From: an uncultured Leptospirales bacterium
Lineage (GTDB): Bacteria > Spirochaetota > UBA4802 > UBA5550
Length of the DNA stretch: 48,512 nt
Direction: 5' to 3'
NCBI GenBank assembly: GCA_964514165.1
Contig: CAZEPS010000004.1
Span: forward strand, 1-48,512
Position 1 is the stretch's first letter, and every line of letters begins with the position of its first letter. The notes beneath the pieces were generated by a model. It did not search any database. It saw only the letters and a list, made by a program, of their open reading frames with translations, and was not told the DNA's origin. This document shows, piece by piece, positions 4,920 through 40,792 of the stretch. Made by a program: the position numbers and the translations under genes.

Positions 4920-4952
4920 ATGAATTTCGATAAAAATCACTGGCGCACGTAA
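4920..4952 (+). CDS. trpL: Putative trp operon leader peptide MNFDKNHWRT
   Basis: ATG AAT TTC GAT AAA AAT CAC TGG CGC ACG TAA, upstream of a terminator hairpin and trpE. The W-R-T ending resembles E. coli TrpL (WWRTS). Confidence 0.65.
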   Translation: MNFDKNHWRT

Positions 4953-4983
4953 ACGTAACAGAACGCCCGGCTTATGTCCCTGG

Positions 4984-5008
4984 AAACACGGCTGAAGCCG
5001 TGTTTTTT
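4984..5008 (+). terminator. Intrinsic terminator (attenuator) in the trp leader
   Basis: AAACACGGC-TGAA-GCCGTGTTT stem-loop running into a T6 tract, 31 nt upstream of the trpE ATG. Confidence 0.8.
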
Positions 5009-5039
5009 GCCACAAAACTGTTTCTACAAGGAGAAACAT

Positions 5040-6518
5040 ATGCTTTTCCCTGAAATTGAAAAATTTAAAGAACTGGCGCAAAACAACAGGAGGGCCGTTG
5101 TCTACCGCGAGATAGCAGGCGACTGCGTTACCCCCATATCACTTCTCATGAGCTTTTCCGATGAGAAATCACTGTTTCTCCTGGAGAGCGCCAACATCGA
5201 CAAGAGTTTTTCGCGGTACACCTATTTCGGCATAAAGCCCAGAAAATCCGTCAGCTTCAGGAATAAAACCCTGACGGTTGAATCGAGCGAAAGGGGAATT
5301 GAATACCCGCCTGGAAATCCTGTCGATTACATCAATTCACTGATTTCACAGGCATCCTCCAACAGGGAAACAACCCTCGGGGATTTCTGCGGTGGGCTCG
5401 TAGGGTACATGGGCTACGATATGGTTAATTACATGAATATCCTCCGAAGGCCGGTCAAGGAGGATGCGGAAAACAGCATCATGCTCTTTTTTCAGATCGA
5501 CGAATTCTACGTTTTCGACAACAAGATGGGAAAATTTTACGCCGCCTGTTCAGTGGAAATTAACGGTACTGCTGAAGAATCCTATGGGCGCGGTGCCGAG
5601 CGCACCATGGAGATGGCGTCAGAGATACTTCACCTCCACAGGCGCCAGTTTAACGGCAACGAGGTCTTCCAGAGGACTGAGGATTTCAACAAGCGTTCAT
5701 TCATGAAAACGGTCAACGATCTGAAGAATGAAATCGTCAACGGCGAGTGCATACAAACCGTGCTCTCGAACAGATACGAGATCGAATGCAGCATCAATCC
5801 AATCAACCTGTATAGAACACTGAGAAACATCAACCCTTCGCCCTACATGTTCTACATCAAGCACGGTGACGAAATCCTCTGCGGGACATCCCCCGAGGTG
5901 CACCTCAAGCTCTCTGACAACACAGCCGTATTGAGACCGATAGCCGGCACCTACCGCGCGAACGGACATGATACCGAAGAAGTAAAGCAGCGTCTCCTCG
6001 AGGACGAGAAAGAGCGGGCTGAGCACCTGATGCTCCTCGACCTGGCAAGGAACGATCTCTACAGCGGGTGCAGAACTGAAACCGTTGCGGTGACGAAATC
6101 CTTTACCGCCGAAGTCTACTCCCACCTCATTCATATCGTGTCCGAGGTGCAGGGAAGGAAAAGGGACGACACTACCCCCATGGGCCTCTTCTGTAAAACC
6201 TTCCCGGCCGGAACCGTTACCGGCGCTCCAAAGGTCCGGGCTATGGAACTCATCGACGAGCACGAAATCTCTCCCCGGGGGTTTTACGCGGGATGCGCCG
6301 GCTATTTCTCCTACAGCCAGGACATGGATACCTGCATAATCATCAGAAGCGCCATGATAAAAAATGACCGGGTTATACTGAGGGCCGGCGCCGGAATCGT
6401 CTACGACAGCGTACCGGACAAAGAATACGACGAAGTGGGTGTCAAGCTCGGCGCCCTCAACGATTCACTTGAACAATTAAACATACTGGAGAAGAAAAAT
6501 GTTTTTATTGATAGATAA
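5040..6518 (+). CDS. trpE: Anthranilate synthase component I
   Basis: Motifs LLESA, NPSPYM, RPIAGT, AEHLMLLDLARND and FPAGTVTGAPK. Start placed at ATG 5040 after the AAGGAG SD, not at 4974. Confidence 0.96.
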   Translation: MLFPEIEKFKELAQNNRRAVVYREIAGDCVTPISLLMSFSDEKSLFLLESANIDKSFSRYTYFGIKPRKSVSFRNKTLTVESSERGIEYPPGNPVDYINSLISQASSNRETTLGDFCGGLVGYMGYDMVNYMNILRRPVKEDAENSIMLFFQIDEFYVFDNKMGKFYAACSVEINGTAEESYGRGAERTMEMASEILHLHRRQFNGNEVFQRTEDFNKRSFMKTVNDLKNEIVNGECIQTVLSNRYEIECSINPINLYRTLRNINPSPYMFYIKHGDEILCGTSPEVHLKLSDNTAVLRPIAGTYRANGHDTEEVKQRLLEDEKERAEHLMLLDLARNDLYSGCRTETVAVTKSFTAEVYSHLIHIVSEVQGRKRDDTTPMGLFCKTFPAGTVTGAPKVRAMELIDEHEISPRGFYAGCAGYFSYSQDMDTCIIIRSAMIKNDRVILRAGAGIVYDSVPDKEYDEVGVKLGALNDSLEQLNILEKKNVFIDR

Positions 6519-8118
6519 CTACGACTCGTTCACCTACAACCTCTACGCCCTGTTCAGGAGCTGCGGCGCCGCCTGTGACGTGATAAAAAACGACACCTAT
6601 GTTCCTGCTGACGACTATGACGGAATCATCCTTTCCCCCGGGCCCTCCTCCCCGGAGAACGCTGGTACGACACTTGAATACCTGAAAAACTACACGGGAA
6701 AGATGCCGATCTTCGGTGTCTGCCTCGGGATGCAGTGCATCGCCTATTCACGGAATTACGCGATCCGGAAGGCGTCCACGGTAAAGCACGGCAAGGTTGA
6801 CTCTGTTTCCATAACCAGGGACTCGGTCCTCTTTACCGGCCTTCCCCGAAACTTCAAGGTGGTGCGGTACCACTCCCTCGCTGCCGACCTGGACGATACC
6901 ACGGCCACCTCCCGGTCATTGAGCGACAATACACCCATGTCATACGAGGATTTCGAAAACAGGCTCTTCGGTGTCCAGTTCCACCCCGAATCCATCATGG
7001 GTGAACACGGGGAGGCAATCGTGAACAACTTTCTCCGATATATCGAATACCCGGCATCAAAAAGCAGAAAAACCGCCGGCCCCATTACTGAAAAAGAATC
7101 AACCGTCAATTCGGAAGTTACGGGTAGCGGGAGAAAAAAGATGTCATCGCCCGCAGGCAGGCCCGGTTTGTACGGACAAGAGGTATTCGACGATATGTTA
7201 ACCGGGAAATTATCAGACGTCGAAACAGCCTCTATACTCCTGGCCATGAAACACCGGGGGGAAACACCTGAAGAACTCGCGGCCCTCGCAACAGTGCTCA
7301 ACCGGCACAAGAAGATCTTTGACGCGGGGGACAAACCCTGTGTCGACTCCTGCGGAACCGGGGGTGACGGAAAATCAACGATCAACGTCTCAACCGCGGT
7401 CAGTATCATCCTCGCCTCGATGAAACAGAACGTGGTAAAGCACGGCAATTCGGCCCAGAGCGGAAGGGTCGGATCAGCTGACATCCTTACTGAACTCGGC
7501 TTTGATTTCACCTATCCGGGCACTTCGCCTGAAGAATTCTTCGAGCGGAACAATTACGTCTTCATGATGGCCCCGCACTATCACCCGGCCCTGAAAAACA
7601 TCGGCAGGATACGGAAAGAGCTGAAGGTGCCGACCATTTTCAATTTCGCGGGGCCCCTGGTGAATCCCGCTGACCCTGACTTCCAGGTTATCGGGATAAA
7701 CAGCCGTGATCGAATCGATCTCTTCGCGGAGACCCTCACCATGCTGGGAAAGAACAACGTAACCGTGTATTCTTCCCATGACGGGTTCGACGAGATCTCC
7801 TCCATGGACAGAACCGAATGCGTCACGGTCCGGGACGGAAATCTCATACGCTTTACCCTTGACCCCGCAGATTTTTTTACTCCCTTTGACATGCCCGTCG
7901 TCGAGGACACGGCCCGGGCCCGGGACTGTTTCATCTCTGGAATCAGCGGTTCCAGCGGGAACATGACAAACCTCCTGGCCCTGAATACCGCCCTGGCACT
8001 CCATACCATGAACGGTGAAGATATTCACGGCATTTTCCTCACTGCCAGGGAACACATACTGAGCGGAGCGGCCATGGAAAAACTTGCCGCCTTGACAGGA
8101 AAGGCCCATGTATCTTGA
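6499..8118 (+). CDS. trpGD: Bifunctional anthranilate synthase component II / anthranilate phosphoribosyltransferase (TrpG-TrpD fusion)
   Basis: N-terminal GATase motifs (IDNYDSFTYN, GVCLGMQ, QFHPES) and C-terminal TrpD motifs (CGTGGDG, TINVST, KHGN, GSAD). Confidence 0.95.
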   Translation: MFLLIDNYDSFTYNLYALFRSCGAACDVIKNDTYVPADDYDGIILSPGPSSPENAGTTLEYLKNYTGKMPIFGVCLGMQCIAYSRNYAIRKASTVKHGKVDSVSITRDSVLFTGLPRNFKVVRYHSLAADLDDTTATSRSLSDNTPMSYEDFENRLFGVQFHPESIMGEHGEAIVNNFLRYIEYPASKSRKTAGPITEKESTVNSEVTGSGRKKMSSPAGRPGLYGQEVFDDMLTGKLSDVETASILLAMKHRGETPEELAALATVLNRHKKIFDAGDKPCVDSCGTGGDGKSTINVSTAVSIILASMKQNVVKHGNSAQSGRVGSADILTELGFDFTYPGTSPEEFFERNNYVFMMAPHYHPALKNIGRIRKELKVPTIFNFAGPLVNPADPDFQVIGINSRDRIDLFAETLTMLGKNNVTVYSSHDGFDEISSMDRTECVTVRDGNLIRFTLDPADFFTPFDMPVVEDTARARDCFISGISGSSGNMTNLLALNTALALHTMNGEDIHGIFLTAREHILSGAAMEKLAALTGKAHVS

Positions 8119-8857
8119 TACAATCATACATCACAAGAGACGGGAGATCGCGTCCCTGCCGCGTTTTCCGGGTAAAAGGACCAGGGAGATCCATGACCCG
8201 GCAGGTTTTCTGGAAAAAAAACCGGTCATCGCCGAGATAAAAAAGTCGTCTCCTTCGGAAGGGGTTATACAAAGTGACCCCGACATTATTGGAATCACAC
8301 GGCAGTACCAGGCTGCCGGTGCCGGGGCCATAAGCGTGCTCACCGACCGCCGGTTCTTCAGCGGGGACATCAGCGACATCAAACTCATCGCAGAACATAT
8401 CGAGATACCGATCCTCTGCAAGGACTTCATCCTCGACGAGGTCCAGATCCTGAACGCCTTTACCGCCGGGGCGGACATGGTACTCCTCGTAGCAGCAGCC
8501 CTCGGCAGGGAGGAACTGAAACGCCTGTCATACAGGGCCCGTTCCCTCGGGCTCACGGTCCTGTACGAGATTCACACCCTGGAGGAATTCGAGAAAATAG
8601 AAAACCTCAACCCCCGCCTGGTCGGGGTCAATTCCCGTAATCTCAGAACATTCAGGATAGACATGAACGGGGCTGCCGAAATCCTGTCCAGCCTCAGGGG
8701 AAATTTTCTCAGGGTTGCCGAGAGCGGGATATCCGGCCCCGAAGACATCGCGTTTCTGAAAAGGGCCGGTGCCGAGGCCTTCCTCGTCGGGACCCTCCTC
8801 ATGAGGTCTGCTGACCCTGAAGCCCTCATTGCTGAACTGACCGGGGCCGCGCTGTGA
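8108..8857 (+). CDS. trpC: Indole-3-glycerol phosphate synthase
   Basis: IAEIKKSSPSEG, LCKDFI, GVNSRNL, VAESGI. Confidence 0.96.
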   Translation: MYLDTIIHHKRREIASLPRFPGKRTREIHDPAGFLEKKPVIAEIKKSSPSEGVIQSDPDIIGITRQYQAAGAGAISVLTDRRFFSGDISDIKLIAEHIEIPILCKDFILDEVQILNAFTAGADMVLLVAAALGREELKRLSYRARSLGLTVLYEIHTLEEFEKIENLNPRLVGVNSRNLRTFRIDMNGAAEILSSLRGNFLRVAESGISGPEDIAFLKRAGAEAFLVGTLLMRSADPEALIAELTGAAL

Positions 8858-9420
8858 ACAGGGGCACATCCTTCATAAAAATCTGCGGCATGACCGAAAA
8901 GCGCCAGATAGACTGGGCAGTGGAGCTCGGGTACACGGCCGTGGGATTCGTACTGTATGAAAAGAGCCCCCGGTACGTTGCCGTCGAAGAAGCGAAAGCC
9001 CTGGCCCGGCATGCCGGTGATCGCATAAAGACCGTCGCGGTTTCTCTCCGGTTCAATGAACTGGCTGAGGTAGCCCCGTACACGGATTATATCCAGCTCT
9101 ACGAATTCGCGGAAATGGAAAATCTCATCTATGCCGGAGAATCATTCCAGGACTGTGCAAATGCGGATAACATTAAGTACCTGCTCTATGATGCGAGCAG
9201 GGGGAGCGGTTCCTGCCAGAAATTTCCCGGATGGCTCGAAGAGATCCGCGACCGTCTTATACTCTCGGGGGGCCTGACACCGGATAATGTCCGAGATGTC
9301 ATAAAAAAACACCCCTGCGCCGGCATAGACGTGTCAAGCGGGGTGGAAATAAAAAGGGGCGTAAAAGACCATGCCCTTATGAAACAGTTTATCAACGAGG
9401 TGAAACGTGCAGCAGAGTAA
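8854..9420 (+). CDS. trpF: Phosphoribosylanthranilate isomerase
   Basis: IKICGM, SPRYV, LSGGLTPDNV, IDVSSGVE. Confidence 0.95.
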   Translation: MNRGTSFIKICGMTEKRQIDWAVELGYTAVGFVLYEKSPRYVAVEEAKALARHAGDRIKTVAVSLRFNELAEVAPYTDYIQLYEFAEMENLIYAGESFQDCANADNIKYLLYDASRGSGSCQKFPGWLEEIRDRLILSGGLTPDNVRDVIKKHPCAGIDVSSGVEIKRGVKDHALMKQFINEVKRAAE

Positions 9421-10615
9421 CGGTTTTTACGGGGAATATGGCGGGCAGTTCGTTGCCGAAACCCTGATTCCCGCCCTGGACGAACTTGAAGAAGCCTTTC
9501 GGCAATTCACCACTGATCAGGCCATGAAAGATCAGCTCAGGTCATATCTTGAAGAATACGCGGGACGGCCGACCCCGGTCTACTACGCCAAAAACCTGTC
9601 AGAAAAATACGGCATCCGCCTTTTTCTGAAGCGGGAGGACCTTCTCCATACCGGTGCCCACAAAATTAACAACACCATCGGCCAGGCCCTCCTGGCGGGG
9701 TACATGAACAAGAAGCGGGTCATCGCCGAGACCGGCGCCGGGCAGCACGGGGTCGCCACCGCCACCACCGCGGCCCTCTTCAACCTGGAGTGCACGGTCT
9801 ACATGGGTGAGCTCGACATGGAGAGGCAGATGCCGAACGTAAAGAAGATGCAATACCTGGGGGCAGAGGTCGTTCCGGTCGCCTGGGGCCAGAGGACACT
9901 CAAGGACGCGGTGAACGCCTCCATGAAGGACTGGCTGGCGAACATCGAACACACCCATTACCTCCTTGGATCGGTCATGGGGCCCCACCCCTTTCCAGAA
10001 ATCGTTTCAACCTTTCAGTCAGTCATCGGAAGGGAAGCTCGGGATTATTTCTTATCACGGGGATTTCAACCAGACCAAATCATTGCCTGCGTCGGGGGCG
10101 GGAGCAACGCAATCGGCATGTTCGGCCCTTTCCTGAACGATGAGAGCATCCAACTTATCGGCGTGGAAGCGGGTGGGAGATCCGACAACAGTGGGGACCA
10201 CGCGGCAACCCTCACCCGTGGAAAAAAGGGAATCTTCCAGGGGAACCTGACCTACCTTTTGCAGAATGACAACTACCAGGTCGAAGACGTGCACTCCGTT
10301 TCAGCCGGCCTGGATTACGCCGGGGTCGGTCCCCAGCACGCGTACCTGAGGGACAGCGGCAGGGTCCGGTACGAGACCGTGACCGATACTGAAACCCTTG
10401 CCGCCTTCCGGGAACTGGTGCGGCTCGAAGGGATAATCCCCGCCCTGGAGTCGTCCCACGCCCTGGCCCATGCCCTGAAGACCGCCGGTTCCCTGGCGGG
10501 GAAAAAAATCCTGGTCAACCTCTCCGGCAGGGGTGACAAGGACATGGACATCATAGAACACTACAATTTTGTTTTTCATGAAAGGCGCGATGCACCTCTC
10601 ATGCAGAAACCATAA
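9407..10615 (+). CDS. trpB: Tryptophan synthase beta chain (C-terminal tail supplied by an inserted repeat)
   Basis: KREDLLHTGAHKINN (PLP lysine), AETGAGQHG, SAGLDYAGVGP, NLSGRGDKD. Confidence 0.97.
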   Translation: MQQSNGFYGEYGGQFVAETLIPALDELEEAFRQFTTDQAMKDQLRSYLEEYAGRPTPVYYAKNLSEKYGIRLFLKREDLLHTGAHKINNTIGQALLAGYMNKKRVIAETGAGQHGVATATTAALFNLECTVYMGELDMERQMPNVKKMQYLGAEVVPVAWGQRTLKDAVNASMKDWLANIEHTHYLLGSVMGPHPFPEIVSTFQSVIGREARDYFLSRGFQPDQIIACVGGGSNAIGMFGPFLNDESIQLIGVEAGGRSDNSGDHAATLTRGKKGIFQGNLTYLLQNDNYQVEDVHSVSAGLDYAGVGPQHAYLRDSGRVRYETVTDTETLAAFRELVRLEGIIPALESSHALAHALKTAGSLAGKKILVNLSGRGDKDMDIIEHYNFVFHERRDAPLMQKP

Positions 10616-10644
10616 AAATGCATACTCATGCATTTTTATGTTAG
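10568..10644. mobile_element. 73-bp double-hairpin dispersed element, copy 1 (inside trpB 3' end)
   Basis: 71/77 nt identical to 30098-30174; bounded by TTTG and TTAG; contains two stem-loops. Confidence 0.8.
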
Positions 10645-10666
10645 AAGAACTCGAAGGAATACTGTT

Positions 10667-11380
10667 ATGAAAGGAATCTATATCGTGGGCGGGTACCCGT
10701 CCAGGAAAAAATTCATCGACCGGGCCGGGCTTATCCAGGACTCCGGTTTCGATTTTCTCGAGATCGGAATCCCCTTTAACGATTCGGTGGCCGACGGCCC
10801 GGTTATAACGGACACCATGAACAGGGTGCTCGTGAGCGGGGTAACCACCGGCGATATCCTGGATGATATCGCGTCACTCGGTGAACTGCCGATAAAAAAA
10901 TTCATCATGACCTACGTGAATATCCCCTTCTCATACGGGTACGACGATTTCGTTATGAGGATGAAAAATCACATAGACGGATTAATCATCGCCGATCTTC
11001 CGAACAGGATGGTCCCGGCACTGGCCGGTGAAACCTCCCGAATCCCTGTTGTACCCTTCGCCACCCTGGAGACCCGGGACAGGGACATGGATGTGATAAA
11101 AAAATCCGGGGCAGAATTCGTCTACTTCGTCGGCCTCCGGGGCACGACCGGATCCAACGCGAATCTCACGTCCCCCGAAATCATCAGCGGAATAAAAAAG
11201 GTCAGGGAGCAAACCGGTAAAAAGGTCATCATCGGCTTCGGCATCAAGACCCCCCGGGACGCCGAAACAGCCACTGAGATTGCTGACGGTTACGTCATCG
11301 GTACCGAGGCGGTGCGGCGACAGGACGACCGGAAAGAATTCACCCGGTTCCTGACTGAAATACAGGGAAATTACAACTGA
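10667..11380 (+). CDS. trpA: Tryptophan synthase alpha chain
   Basis: LEIGIPFNDSVADGPVI (catalytic Glu/Asp), GTTG, GFGI. Start at ATG 10667 after GAAGGA. Confidence 0.93.
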   Translation: MKGIYIVGGYPSRKKFIDRAGLIQDSGFDFLEIGIPFNDSVADGPVITDTMNRVLVSGVTTGDILDDIASLGELPIKKFIMTYVNIPFSYGYDDFVMRMKNHIDGLIIADLPNRMVPALAGETSRIPVVPFATLETRDRDMDVIKKSGAEFVYFVGLRGTTGSNANLTSPEIISGIKKVREQTGKKVIIGFGIKTPRDAETATEIADGYVIGTEAVRRQDDRKEFTRFLTEIQGNYN

Positions 11381-12782: not shown

Positions 12783-12891
12783 AGGGAACATCTATTAATG
12801 AAACAAGAGGTTCCCTTTGGGGTACGTATTTTGGTTTCAATTTTATTTAGCCTTGATTAATCAAGGCTAAATAAAATTGTTAGATGTACCC
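12783..12891. repeat. Bipartite inverted-repeat element, locus A, with perfect 42-bp palindrome (12838-12879)
   Basis: GGGAACATCT...AGAGGTTCCC mini-module followed by a GGGTAC...AGATGTACCC module; about 85% identical to 40686-40792. Confidence 0.85.
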
Positions 12892-29132: not shown

Positions 29133-30017
29133 CTATTTCTTCAGTTCAGTGTCAAAAAATTCCATCATGTCGCGTATTATCGTACCCCAGAAATTCCAGT
29201 TATGGGCACGGTGCTTTTTCAGGATGAAAATAACCCTGTTCCGGTGATTTTCCCCCTTAATCTGCTTCAACCGGATGGCCATTCCGATGGAATGCCATTT
29301 CGGTATAACCGGGTCGTGGTCGCCGTGCGCGAGAAATACCGGCATCTGTTTCAGTTTAGACGCCCGGTTCAGGATACTCGCGTCCTTTTCCCACCGTTTC
29401 GGGAACTTTTCGTATTCACCGTACACTGAGGTAATGAGCCAGTCCTTTTTCACCAGTACGGGATCATAATCCCCTGACAATCCAGCAACAGCCCCGAAAC
29501 TTGAACTGAACTCCGCGGCAACCATAAGGGCGCCCCTCGCTCCTGTTGAAAGTCCGAAAATGCCGGTTTGTGTGCTGCTGGTCCCCAGGTTAAAGTTTTT
29601 TCTGATATAGCCCATCAGGTTCTTCGCGATAAAAACACCTCCGGGAATGCCGCCCCATTTGACGTTTGTTTCCGGGTAAAACTTCAATTCGTACAGGGTT
29701 TTTCCCATGTCAGGGCATACAACAGCGAAGTTATATCTGTCGGCAAGCGTCTCAATCTGTGAATATCTCCCCCAGTCGCCCATGGACCCGTTATACCCAT
29801 GAAGGGCGACGAGGGTTCTCATCTTCTCTCCCCGCTTGTACCCTTCAGGAAAATATATCTGAAGACCGGTGCTGTAAGTTTCTCCCCCTGCCGAACAGGT
29901 AATCGTGAGATCCTTCAGCCAGGCCCCCGGGGTTATGTCCCCCTTGTACCGCATTCCCGCATCGGAAACGGCAGGATAGATAAAGAGTATAAGCAGCAGT
30001 AGAATTATTTTCTTCAT
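29133..30017 (-). CDS. Secreted alpha/beta-hydrolase (esterase family)
   Basis: Signal peptide, LHG, nucleophile GLSTG, HGDHD, HNW. Confidence 0.88.
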   Translation of the reverse strand: MKKIILLLLILFIYPAVSDAGMRYKGDITPGAWLKDLTITCSAGGETYSTGLQIYFPEGYKRGEKMRTLVALHGYNGSMGDWGRYSQIETLADRYNFAVVCPDMGKTLYELKFYPETNVKWGGIPGGVFIAKNLMGYIRKNFNLGTSSTQTGIFGLSTGARGALMVAAEFSSSFGAVAGLSGDYDPVLVKKDWLITSVYGEYEKFPKRWEKDASILNRASKLKQMPVFLAHGDHDPVIPKWHSIGMAIRLKQIKGENHRNRVIFILKKHRAHNWNFWGTIIRDMMEFFDTELKK

Positions 30018-30097
30018 GCTTTCCTCGATCGCGATTTCAATCAGGTTATCCGGTAAAGAAATAATCCGAAGGGGTTTTTTTCAAGAAATATTTTTAT

Positions 30098-30174
30098 TTA
30101 GTTTTTCATGAGAGGCGCGATGCACCTCTCATTCAGAAACCATAAAAATGCATACCCATGTATTTTCATGTTAG
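30098..30174. mobile_element. 73-bp double-hairpin dispersed element, copy 2, with perfect TTAG direct repeats
   Basis: TTAG at 30098-30101 and 30171-30174; 71/77 nt identical to 10568-10644. Confidence 0.8.
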
Positions 30175-30186
30175 CTCTTATGACTT

Positions 30187-30885
30187 TCATGCGGGCACAT
30201 ATCCCTCTTCTCTCATGCTCAGGTAGGATGTGTCGGTTATGATGACATGGTCCATAAGGGGGATCCCGATTATCTTTCCGCATTCCGCTATCCTGGCGGT
30301 GGTCTGGATATCCTCCCGTGACGGTGACGCAACCCCCGAAGGGTGATTGTGTGCTATGATTATTCCGGACCCCCCTTCTCTGATCGCGTCGCGGAACACC
30401 TCCCTCGGGTGGACAATCGATTCGGAAATCGTACCGACACTGACGAGGCATTTCTTTAAAAGATGGTTCTTGTTGTTCAATATGAGAACCCTGAACTCTT
30501 CCCTGCACAGGCCGGCCATCTCGCCGAGGAGGAGTTCCCATACGAGCCTGGGGGAGTCTATCCGTGCCGGGTGTTCCCGGGAACTGATAATCCTCCTCCC
30601 CATCTCGAGGGCAGCGTGTATCCTGATCGCTTTTTTTAACCCGATACCCTTGACCATTGATAATTCACGAATACCTGACCGGAACAGGCCGTGCAGACCT
30701 CCAAACTCGCTCAGGACACAGGTCGACAGGCCGAGGACACTGTTGTTCTTGAAACCCGTGTTGAGAACGATGGCGAGGAGTTCAATGTCAGAGAGTTTTT
30801 TAACATCTTCACCACCCAGGCATTTCTGAACCGGTAGAATGCTCCTGCCCGTATCGTTCACGACTGTTGATTGTAATTCTTCCAT
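30187..30885 (-). CDS. radC: RadC family protein (HhH + JAB domain)
   Basis: LSDIELLAIVL, KGIG, VHPREVF, HNHPSG, DHVII. Confidence 0.94.
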   Translation of the reverse strand: MEELQSTVVNDTGRSILPVQKCLGGEDVKKLSDIELLAIVLNTGFKNNSVLGLSTCVLSEFGGLHGLFRSGIRELSMVKGIGLKKAIRIHAALEMGRRIISSREHPARIDSPRLVWELLLGEMAGLCREEFRVLILNNKNHLLKKCLVSVGTISESIVHPREVFRDAIREGGSGIIIAHNHPSGVASPSREDIQTTARIAECGKIIGIPLMDHVIITDTSYLSMREEGYVPA

Positions 30886-40685: not shown

Positions 40686-40792
40686 GGTAACCTCTATTAA
40701 TTATACAAGAGGTCCCCTTTGAGTACGTATTATGGCTTAAATTTGATTCAGCCTTGATTAATCAAGGCTGAATCAAATTGTTAGCTGCACCC
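40686..40792. repeat. Bipartite inverted-repeat element, locus C, with perfect 40-bp palindrome (40740-40779)
   Basis: About 85% identical to 12783-12891; palindrome AATTTGATTCAGCCTTGATTAATCAAGGCTGAATCAAATT. Confidence 0.85.

Follow-up and report, generated by a model that had tools for sequence, protein, structure and literature searches.

Small hairpin repeats are already known in bacteria, and some of them touch the ends of genes. The termini of GTAG-tagged repetitive extragenic palindromic (REP) sequences frequently supply the TAG stop of flanking open reading frames (ORFs), and some REP dimers lie within target palindromes, according to a source that also cites the Rickettsia palindromic elements (RPE) as protein-coding palindromes (PMC3733652). 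The QMITE small repeats of Coxiella burnetii overlap the 3' ends of functional genes (PMC5896051), and insertion sequences of the IS200/IS605 family lack inverted repeats, duplicate nothing at their target, and rely on hairpins at their ends to enter 3' of a tetra- or pentanucleotide (PMC7290912). Here we describe a two-hairpin repeat at the trpB-trpA junction of an uncultured Leptospirales bacterium. It lies in a stretch of 48,512 nt, which we call the window, corresponding to contig C4 of a metagenome-assembled genome (MAG) of 4.46 Mb in 399 contigs that is 95% complete. The repeat is a lineage-specific and previously undescribed member of the small hairpin repeats. On comparison of sequences it is very probable that it is a lineage-specific non-coding mobile repeat, and that it inserted after a T-rich xTAG-like site (TTTG/TTAG) between the codon for Asn-387 of TrpB and the next.

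The initial annotation of this DNA had proposed that a 73-bp element entered the 3' end of trpB, and that its removal restores a LEELEGILL-type tail and an overlap with trpA. This is borne out in any register. Excision of 73 nt, from 10568-10640 through to 10572-10644, gives a TrpB ending in ...EHYN(L/F)EELEGILL, and the restored TGA ends at 10670, overlapping the trpA ATG (10667) as ATGA. As it stands, the C-terminal end encoded by the trpB ORF (9407-10615, plus strand, as are all features below unless stated) is ...EHYNFVFHERRDAPLMQKP-stop, which divides at the insertion point into ...GRGDKDMDIIEHYN and FVFHERRDAPLMQKP-stop. The element supplies the final 15 codons (10569-10613) and the stop, the TAA at 10613-10615.

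The nearest relatives are uncultured Spirochaetota with TrpB 64-70% and TrpA 42-54% identical. Eleven loci have a TrpA with 42% identity or more; at every one of them trpB and trpA overlap by 4 nt (ATGA) and there is no element. The TrpB of five of these ends in N-(L/M/R)-E-(E/D)-(L/I), one ends in LAEEL, one in LLEDK, and the other four have different ends. At 14 more distant loci TrpB ends 2-8 nt before the projected residue 1 of TrpA, and the DNA there reads ATGA too. Seven further public loci were compared, four of which duplicate counted loci or each other; at metagenome locus L075 TrpB ends in NLEEL and overlaps trpA. The element-free overlap in 11 of 11 relatives, and the LEEL-like tails in five of them and in L075, bear out a 73-bp insertion. 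We also looked for the contrary outcome named in the initial annotation, conservation of the FVFHERR tail across TrpB homologues, and this tail is at no TrpB end among the relatives' loci compared. A match to FHERR in locus L042 was rejected as an out-of-frame chance match away from the TrpB end.

Several points weigh against this reading. There is no closer relative than one with 54% TrpA identity (54% in the genome sets, 52% in genome contigs and 51% in metagenome contigs). Four distant loci have trpB-trpA spacers of 16-47 nt, and two further lineages are without the overlap, with spacers of 62 nt (L072/L076) and 87 nt (L073). The restored tail is five residues (EGILL) longer than that of any relative. 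Finally the empty allele was not seen: one microbial-mat study has three runs with contigs of the locus, and no join listed for them skips the element, though depth at the locus is low in these and absence of the allele is not thereby established. No RNA run is among those listed as carrying the locus.

With regard to the extra residues, their 15 nt (in window 10650-10680) resemble the first trpA codons immediately downstream, and this resemblance suggests that the EGILL extension is an older small duplication that kept the ATGA overlap. The L073 spacer (L073:1900-2005) folds into a strong hairpin of its own (-27.8 kcal/mol), with its L072 counterpart at 1930-2000. The trpB-trpA junction may have been hit independently by other inserts in the L072 and L073 lineages.

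These points bear on the alternative that there was no insertion, the hairpin spacer being ancestral and lost in the relatives, or else the product of a misassembly across the repeat that brought trpB and trpA together. The MAG is indeed fragmented, with several copies of the repeat at contig ends, and the two lineages just mentioned show non-overlapping trpB-trpA spacers. However a chimeric join would not give flanks that meet in frame as the relatives' LEEL tail and ATGA overlap. In addition, contigs of one of the mat runs (X1), assembled separately, cover 10100-10644 (trpB through the element) and 10615-10849 (hairpin 2 into trpA), although X1 may be the source of the MAG. We consider this alternative barely credible. 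Since the flanks rebuild the tail and the overlap of the relatives, and about 55 copies of the element lie elsewhere in the genome, insertion is in our view the only reasonable reading.

In the register without duplication the inserted element is the 73 nt at 10572-10644, as placed by family alignments and the flank profile, and it scores 103 bits with the covariance model; the register first proposed, 10568-10640, has the same length. The left tetramer is TTTG at 10568-10571, where most copies have TTAG, ATAG or GTAG, and the right one is TTAG at 10641-10644. The TrpB tail had been said to be read from a repeat also present near 30098-30174, and this is correct: the second copy in the window spans 30096-30174 and is 92% identical to 10566-10644 over 79 nt (BLAST E = 4e-27). 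This second copy lies in intergenic DNA, with the stop of one minus-strand ORF (30187-30885) on one side and the start of the next (29133-30017) on the other.

The element consists of two adjoining hairpins with a common foot, CATGA...TCATG. Hairpin 1 (10571-10610) has an imperfect stem, seen in the folds and with 95.2% of helix-1 cells paired, while hairpin 2 (10611-10640) has the perfect 13-bp stem that had been noted ahead of trpA, which folding confirms, with a 4-nt loop. The two fold at -28.5 kcal/mol (z = -3.2), and a 116-nt region folds better than 200 of 200 shuffles (z = -3.2 as RNA and -4.25 as DNA). There are no terminal inverted repeats: in the consensus the 5' end does not match the reverse complement of the 3' end, and only the CATGA feet are alike. 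Across 30 aligned copies 96% of cells pair, and two positions in the stem of hairpin 2 have changed in a compensatory manner (6 cells, a count reached in none of 500 shuffles, against an expectation of 0.7). To be set against this, part of the covariation has been inherited within one subfamily (the window copy, one in C346 and one in C7), so the events are not independent.

In its own genome the family is large. With BLAST there are 53 copies 60 nt or more in length, the profile search (nhmmer) gives 102 matches, of which 55 are near-full and the remainder partial or opposite-strand echoes of the palindromes, and the covariance model gives 73. The 49 ungapped copies have a mean identity of 91.5% to the consensus. 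Summed contig depth in run X1 is about 460 for the element and about 6 for its flanks. The copies occur in many unrelated contexts; among the 55 near-full ones, 32 are clear of any stop-to-stop frame of 120 aa or more, and the overlaps of the others are mostly at the start side of such frames. Outside this genome the element was not found by BLAST in 63 other genomes of the same family, and a 26-mer of hairpin 1 had no exact match in metagenome contigs and none in viral contigs. Rfam gave nothing at gathering score in the window except two tRNAs, and only chance-level matches on 10500-10720. In 40 relatives the covariance model gave a single weak match (34.7 bits, E = 0.002), in genome G007 at L078:1501-1576. 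This sequence is TTAG-tagged and has the two-hairpin layout, with a second stem nearly the same as that of hairpin 2, and it lies just 5' of an apparent 23S rRNA start.

The flanks could be read on both sides for 53 copies. Conservation climbs toward (A/T)TTTAG on the left and falls sharply past (T/G)TAG on the right. The left tetramer is TTAG in 22, ATAG in 11 and GTAG in 4, with five T residues between the xTAG and the stem of hairpin 1, and the right tetramer is TTAG in 26, GTAG in 11 and ATAG in 1. TAG is thus present on the left in 37 copies, on the right in 38 and on both sides in 27. CTA flanks were found in 0 of 53, and the orientation of the element is therefore fixed relative to the target strand.

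The initial annotation had further supposed a 4-bp duplication of TTAG, the left copy of which had drifted to TTTG, and here we differ. Of the 27 copies flanked by TAG on the left and on the right, 10 have a different base ahead of the left TAG from that ahead of the right one. Moreover the loop of a 32-nt hairpin repeat carries the element in four cases, each time at the same TAG and in the same orientation. This host repeat (consensus ...TTAATAG/AGGTTCCC, the slash marking the landing point) has at least 116 copies at up to 6 substitutions, mostly empty. The nested copies have the host ATAG on the left (GTAG in one), and TTAG, TTAG, GTAG and GTAG as right ends; in three of them the host ATAG stands against TTAG or GTAG. 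The mismatched bases and the nested copies together leave a 4-bp duplication unsupported. At most, on these sequences, either TAG alone would be duplicated, or there would be no duplication and the element would carry its own (T/G)TAG. Copies with hairpin 2 only retain TTAG, and copies with hairpin 1 only retain the left xTAG or TTTG. At trpB, the right TTAG is accordingly either element-borne or at most a TAG duplicate, and information content falls sharply beyond it. The left TTTG may be the original target, with an ancestral Phe, or it may be a mutated TTAG, with an ancestral Leu as in the relatives.

A second account of the same insertion has to be weighed, in which the element is a conventional miniature inverted-repeat transposable element (MITE), 70 nt long, moved by a DDE-type transposase that duplicates the 3-bp TAG. 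The TAG flanks on both sides in 27 of 53 copies fit this, as do the 73 nt added at trpB (70 + 3), and a family divergence of about 8% could account for the roughly one third of copies in which the left and the right TAG do not match. Against it, the consensus has no terminal inverted repeats, the tie of orientation to the TAG strand is unusual for cut-and-paste DDE transposition at a non-palindromic site, and no parent insertion sequence with these ends is in the assembly. We regard the DDE account as rather unlikely, though deserving to be kept in mind.

One copy, at C254:4757-4836, is flanked by ATAG on the left and on the right, and the 10-nt motif GTTATCGGTA occurs 22 nt upstream of it and again directly downstream. 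The paired motifs may be a local duplication or a coincidence.

As to the consequences of insertion for the operon, each of the three frames of the element strand meets a stop: the left TAG, a TGA at +7, and a TGA or TAA at +41. Having entered in the third frame, trpB is read 15 codons into the element and stops at the TAA, which sits in the 5' arm of hairpin 2, and TrpB has so gained a 15-residue tail that is non-homologous to any TrpB. One other long ORF (631 aa) enters a copy in the second frame. The old last codons, LEELEGILL and the TGA, are stranded downstream together with the former ATGA overlap, at 10641-10670, where they are now untranslated spacer as judged from the in-silico removal and the tails of the relatives. 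A 51-nt spacer with the 13-bp hairpin now separates trpB from trpA. Because the catalytic domain of TrpB, the ribosome-binding motif of trpA and both frames are intact, we think that the trp operon probably still works. What would be lost, from the arrangement of the sequence, is the termination-reinitiation coupling of trpA to trpB, and trpA would then rely on its own ribosome-binding site.

It could be argued that the trpB-trpA copy has been co-opted, and kept, for a role as an RNA hairpin between the cistrons: it would control the ratio of TrpB to TrpA through stabilisation of the upstream mRNA, an RNase site or slower termination at the trpB stop. The trpB stop lies within the 5' arm of a perfect 13-bp stem in a strong fold, and REP-type elements are reported to influence mRNA turnover and gene expression (PMC8266576, PMC3733652). 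However there is no copy-specific signal of selection, as the trpB copy has 5 changes from the family consensus, like other copies; the same element occurs in many unrelated contexts; and a terminator scan of 10300-10900 gave no intrinsic terminator, and only three weak promoter-like sites. We think co-option improbable.

Other copies also lie at gene ends. In seven of them a long ORF (250 aa or more) has the left TAG as its in-frame stop, and in one more a TGA overlaps the tag. In four, an ORF on the opposite strand ends with a TAA that is read from the complement of the right TTAG. Pfam domains are carried by 9 of these 12 ORFs, several reaching the C-terminus; in a fumarate-reductase-type flavoprotein and an S-adenosylmethionine synthetase, for example, the domains run to or near the last residue. 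At C51:10952-11032 and C237:5121-5201 the element exactly spans the gap between the stops of convergent ORFs, with TAG on the left and the complementary TAA on the right. Stop-codon TAGs make up 7 of 55 targets, against 4.8% expected (one-sided p = 0.016), and this enrichment is no more than suggestive, the null being crude, in that ORFs of 200 aa or more stand in for genes. One could go further and see a stop-codon-seeking single-strand element, which lands cheaply at gene ends through its (T/A)TAG target and its stops in all frames, and of which the trpB copy is retained as a functional uncoupler, allowing TrpB and TrpA to be produced at other than 1:1, but to us this seems a long shot.

With regard to mobilisation, we tentatively favour, by analogy, a mechanism in which the element would move as single-stranded hairpin DNA through an HUH/Y1-type enzyme acting in trans, as for the REP sequences, and the bacterial interspersed mosaic elements (BIMEs) built from them, with the REP-associated tyrosine transposases (RAYTs), or for ends-only derivatives of IS200/IS605. 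We would put this at somewhat less than an even chance. The features that match are the lack of inverted termini, a hairpin for each end with a common foot, the fixed orientation 3' of a short non-palindromic site, and the fact that no duplication is required. The probability remaining beyond this and the DDE model goes to an unknown mechanism.

There is a good deal to be said on the other side. No cognate mobilising gene is linked to the element, and the only Y1/HUH genes found are four partial RAYT-like copies, all at contig ends. There are at least four of these partial Y1 genes (C361:2974-3273, C2:66243-66416, C34:11-184 and C217:7248-7406), cut by the contig ends, and the best NCBIfam match, to REP_Tyr_transpos, is 64 bits, below the 80-bit cut-off, on a truncated ORF. 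These genes are preceded by a different repeat, an A-run followed by GGCTCTGACCC, and their 3' sides lie beyond the contig ends; the 13-mer of the GGCTCTGACCC repeat occurs 174 times in the genome at up to one substitution. The TnpB families PF07282 and PF01385 have 0 matches in the genome, and in this 95% complete but fragmented assembly no full-length element with hairpin 1 and hairpin 2 as its ends was seen. The copies with only hairpin 1 or only hairpin 2 are not the ends of a longer unit. Finally, orientation is unbiased with respect to GC skew (32 of 55 concordant, p = 0.28), but the skew is weak and this test is therefore uninformative.

The window also has other features of interest. 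Positions 4974-11380 hold a trp operon of trpE, a trpG-trpD fusion, trpC, trpF, trpB and trpA, as assigned with Pfam. The other trp junctions had been described as overlapping, and so they are when the longest ORFs are taken, with start codons assumed: trpE/trpGD by 20 nt, trpGD/trpC by 11, trpC/trpF by 4 and trpF/trpB by 14, leaving trpB/trpA as the sole junction without overlap. In its present form trpB (9407-10615) encodes 402 aa from the longest start, with a PALP domain (Pfam) at residues 52-374, and it is the only canonical trpB in the genome. The best match of TrpB to solved TrpB chains has E = 2.5e-153, and homology stops at query residue 382-389, which confines the replacement to the extreme C-terminus.

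For trpA we take 10667-11380 (237 aa; Pfam Trp_syntA, E = 1.3e-43), as the TrpA proteins of the relatives start at the homologous MKGIY. A Shine-Dalgarno-like GAAGGAA, read directly at 10651-10657, lies 9 nt 5' of this ATG and is untouched by the insertion; the relatives have GGAGG at its position. There is an in-frame ATG at 10628, within hairpin 2, and the longest trpA ORF (10628-11380) begins there, 13 codons early. Automatic annotation could choose it, whereas the TrpA starts of the relatives match MKGIY at 10667.

A short ORF of 10 codons, one of them for Trp (MNFDKNHWRT), lies upstream of trpE (window 4920-5009), and 3' of it there is a hairpin and T-run at about 4984-5009, shortly 5' of the likely trpE start at 5040. 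Together these could be a candidate leader-peptide attenuator. The consensus terminator scan gave no call at this hairpin, and its fold is no better than that of shuffles (z = -1.1).

There are also other repeats. The 32-nt hairpin repeat, with GGGAACC...GGTTCCC arms and an AT-rich loop ending in TAG, is in the window at 12784-12815 and 40686-40717, and the trpB-type element has landed repeatedly at the TAG of its loop. Directly adjoining it is an 80-nt repeat, at 12812-12891 and 40713-40792 (85% identical), which is built around a 41-nt palindrome and ends in GTTAG. In C147 and C162 hairpin 1 of the trpB-type element takes the place of the centre of the 80-nt repeat, so that the repeat families form mosaics.

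The trpB event is a neat and unsurprising case of the already known remodelling of gene ends by a small repeat. It is however an unusually clean filled site, in that the sequence before insertion can be read from the flanks and checked against relatives. It illustrates that a small hairpin repeat can rewrite the C-terminus of a protein and break a stop/start overlap in a textbook coupled operon, and destroy neither gene. It is also relevant to annotation, since the longest ORF for trpA has its start within the element, at 10628, and the tail of trpB has no homology to any TrpB. The strict orientation at TAG and the use of the tag as stop by neighbouring genes add a spirochaete example to descriptions of tagged REPs, and hint, in a way that can be tested, at an HUH-type mechanism in a lineage without a characterised element of this kind.

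It remains to compare the element with described systems. The classical MITE differs, as our element has no terminal inverted repeats and any duplication is of at most 3 bp. The RPEs are similar in being palindromic repeats that end within ORFs and are translated. RPEs are typically in-frame and internal, and add a peptide segment, whereas the trpB element truncates the gene and replaces its tail. QMITE1 and QMITE2 of Coxiella burnetii come closer in effect, being small repeats that give genes their last residues and stop, with insertions in functional genes at the 3' end only, but they have inverted or direct terminal repeats and unrelated sequence, and the available part of that report has no broken translational overlap in an operon (PMC5896051).

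The ends-only derivatives of IS200/IS605, or palindrome-associated transposable elements (PATEs), are alike in having no terminal inverted repeats, a hairpin at each end and oriented insertion 3' of a specific site (PMC7290912). Our data can be explained without target duplication; one of 4 bp is excluded, and a 3-bp TAG duplication and an element-borne TAG are indistinguishable. They are unlike in that no tnpA/tnpB element with matching ends was found in this genome. The hairpins of our element probably also abut its ends more closely than do those of IS608.

With REP/BIME sequences and their RAYTs (PMC3733652, PMC8266576, PMC3333891) the element has in common that it is a short, high-copy hairpin repeat, mostly intergenic, with a conserved xTAG beside the hairpin. 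As with tagged REPs, its termini give TAG stops to neighbouring ORFs, copies lie within other palindromes and units form mosaics, and RAYT-like genes are present in the genome. There are differences: the tag is mainly TTAG or ATAG and not GTAG (4 of 53 on the left); a BIME has a REP and an inverted REP with a linker, whereas here the two hairpins differ and follow each other in direct order, and the TAG at each end lies on one and the same strand; and in a REPtron the RAYT gene is flanked by its own REPs, while the RAYT-like genes here are preceded by another repeat. Overall it is the REP/BIME or IS200/IS605-derived hairpin elements that our element most resembles.

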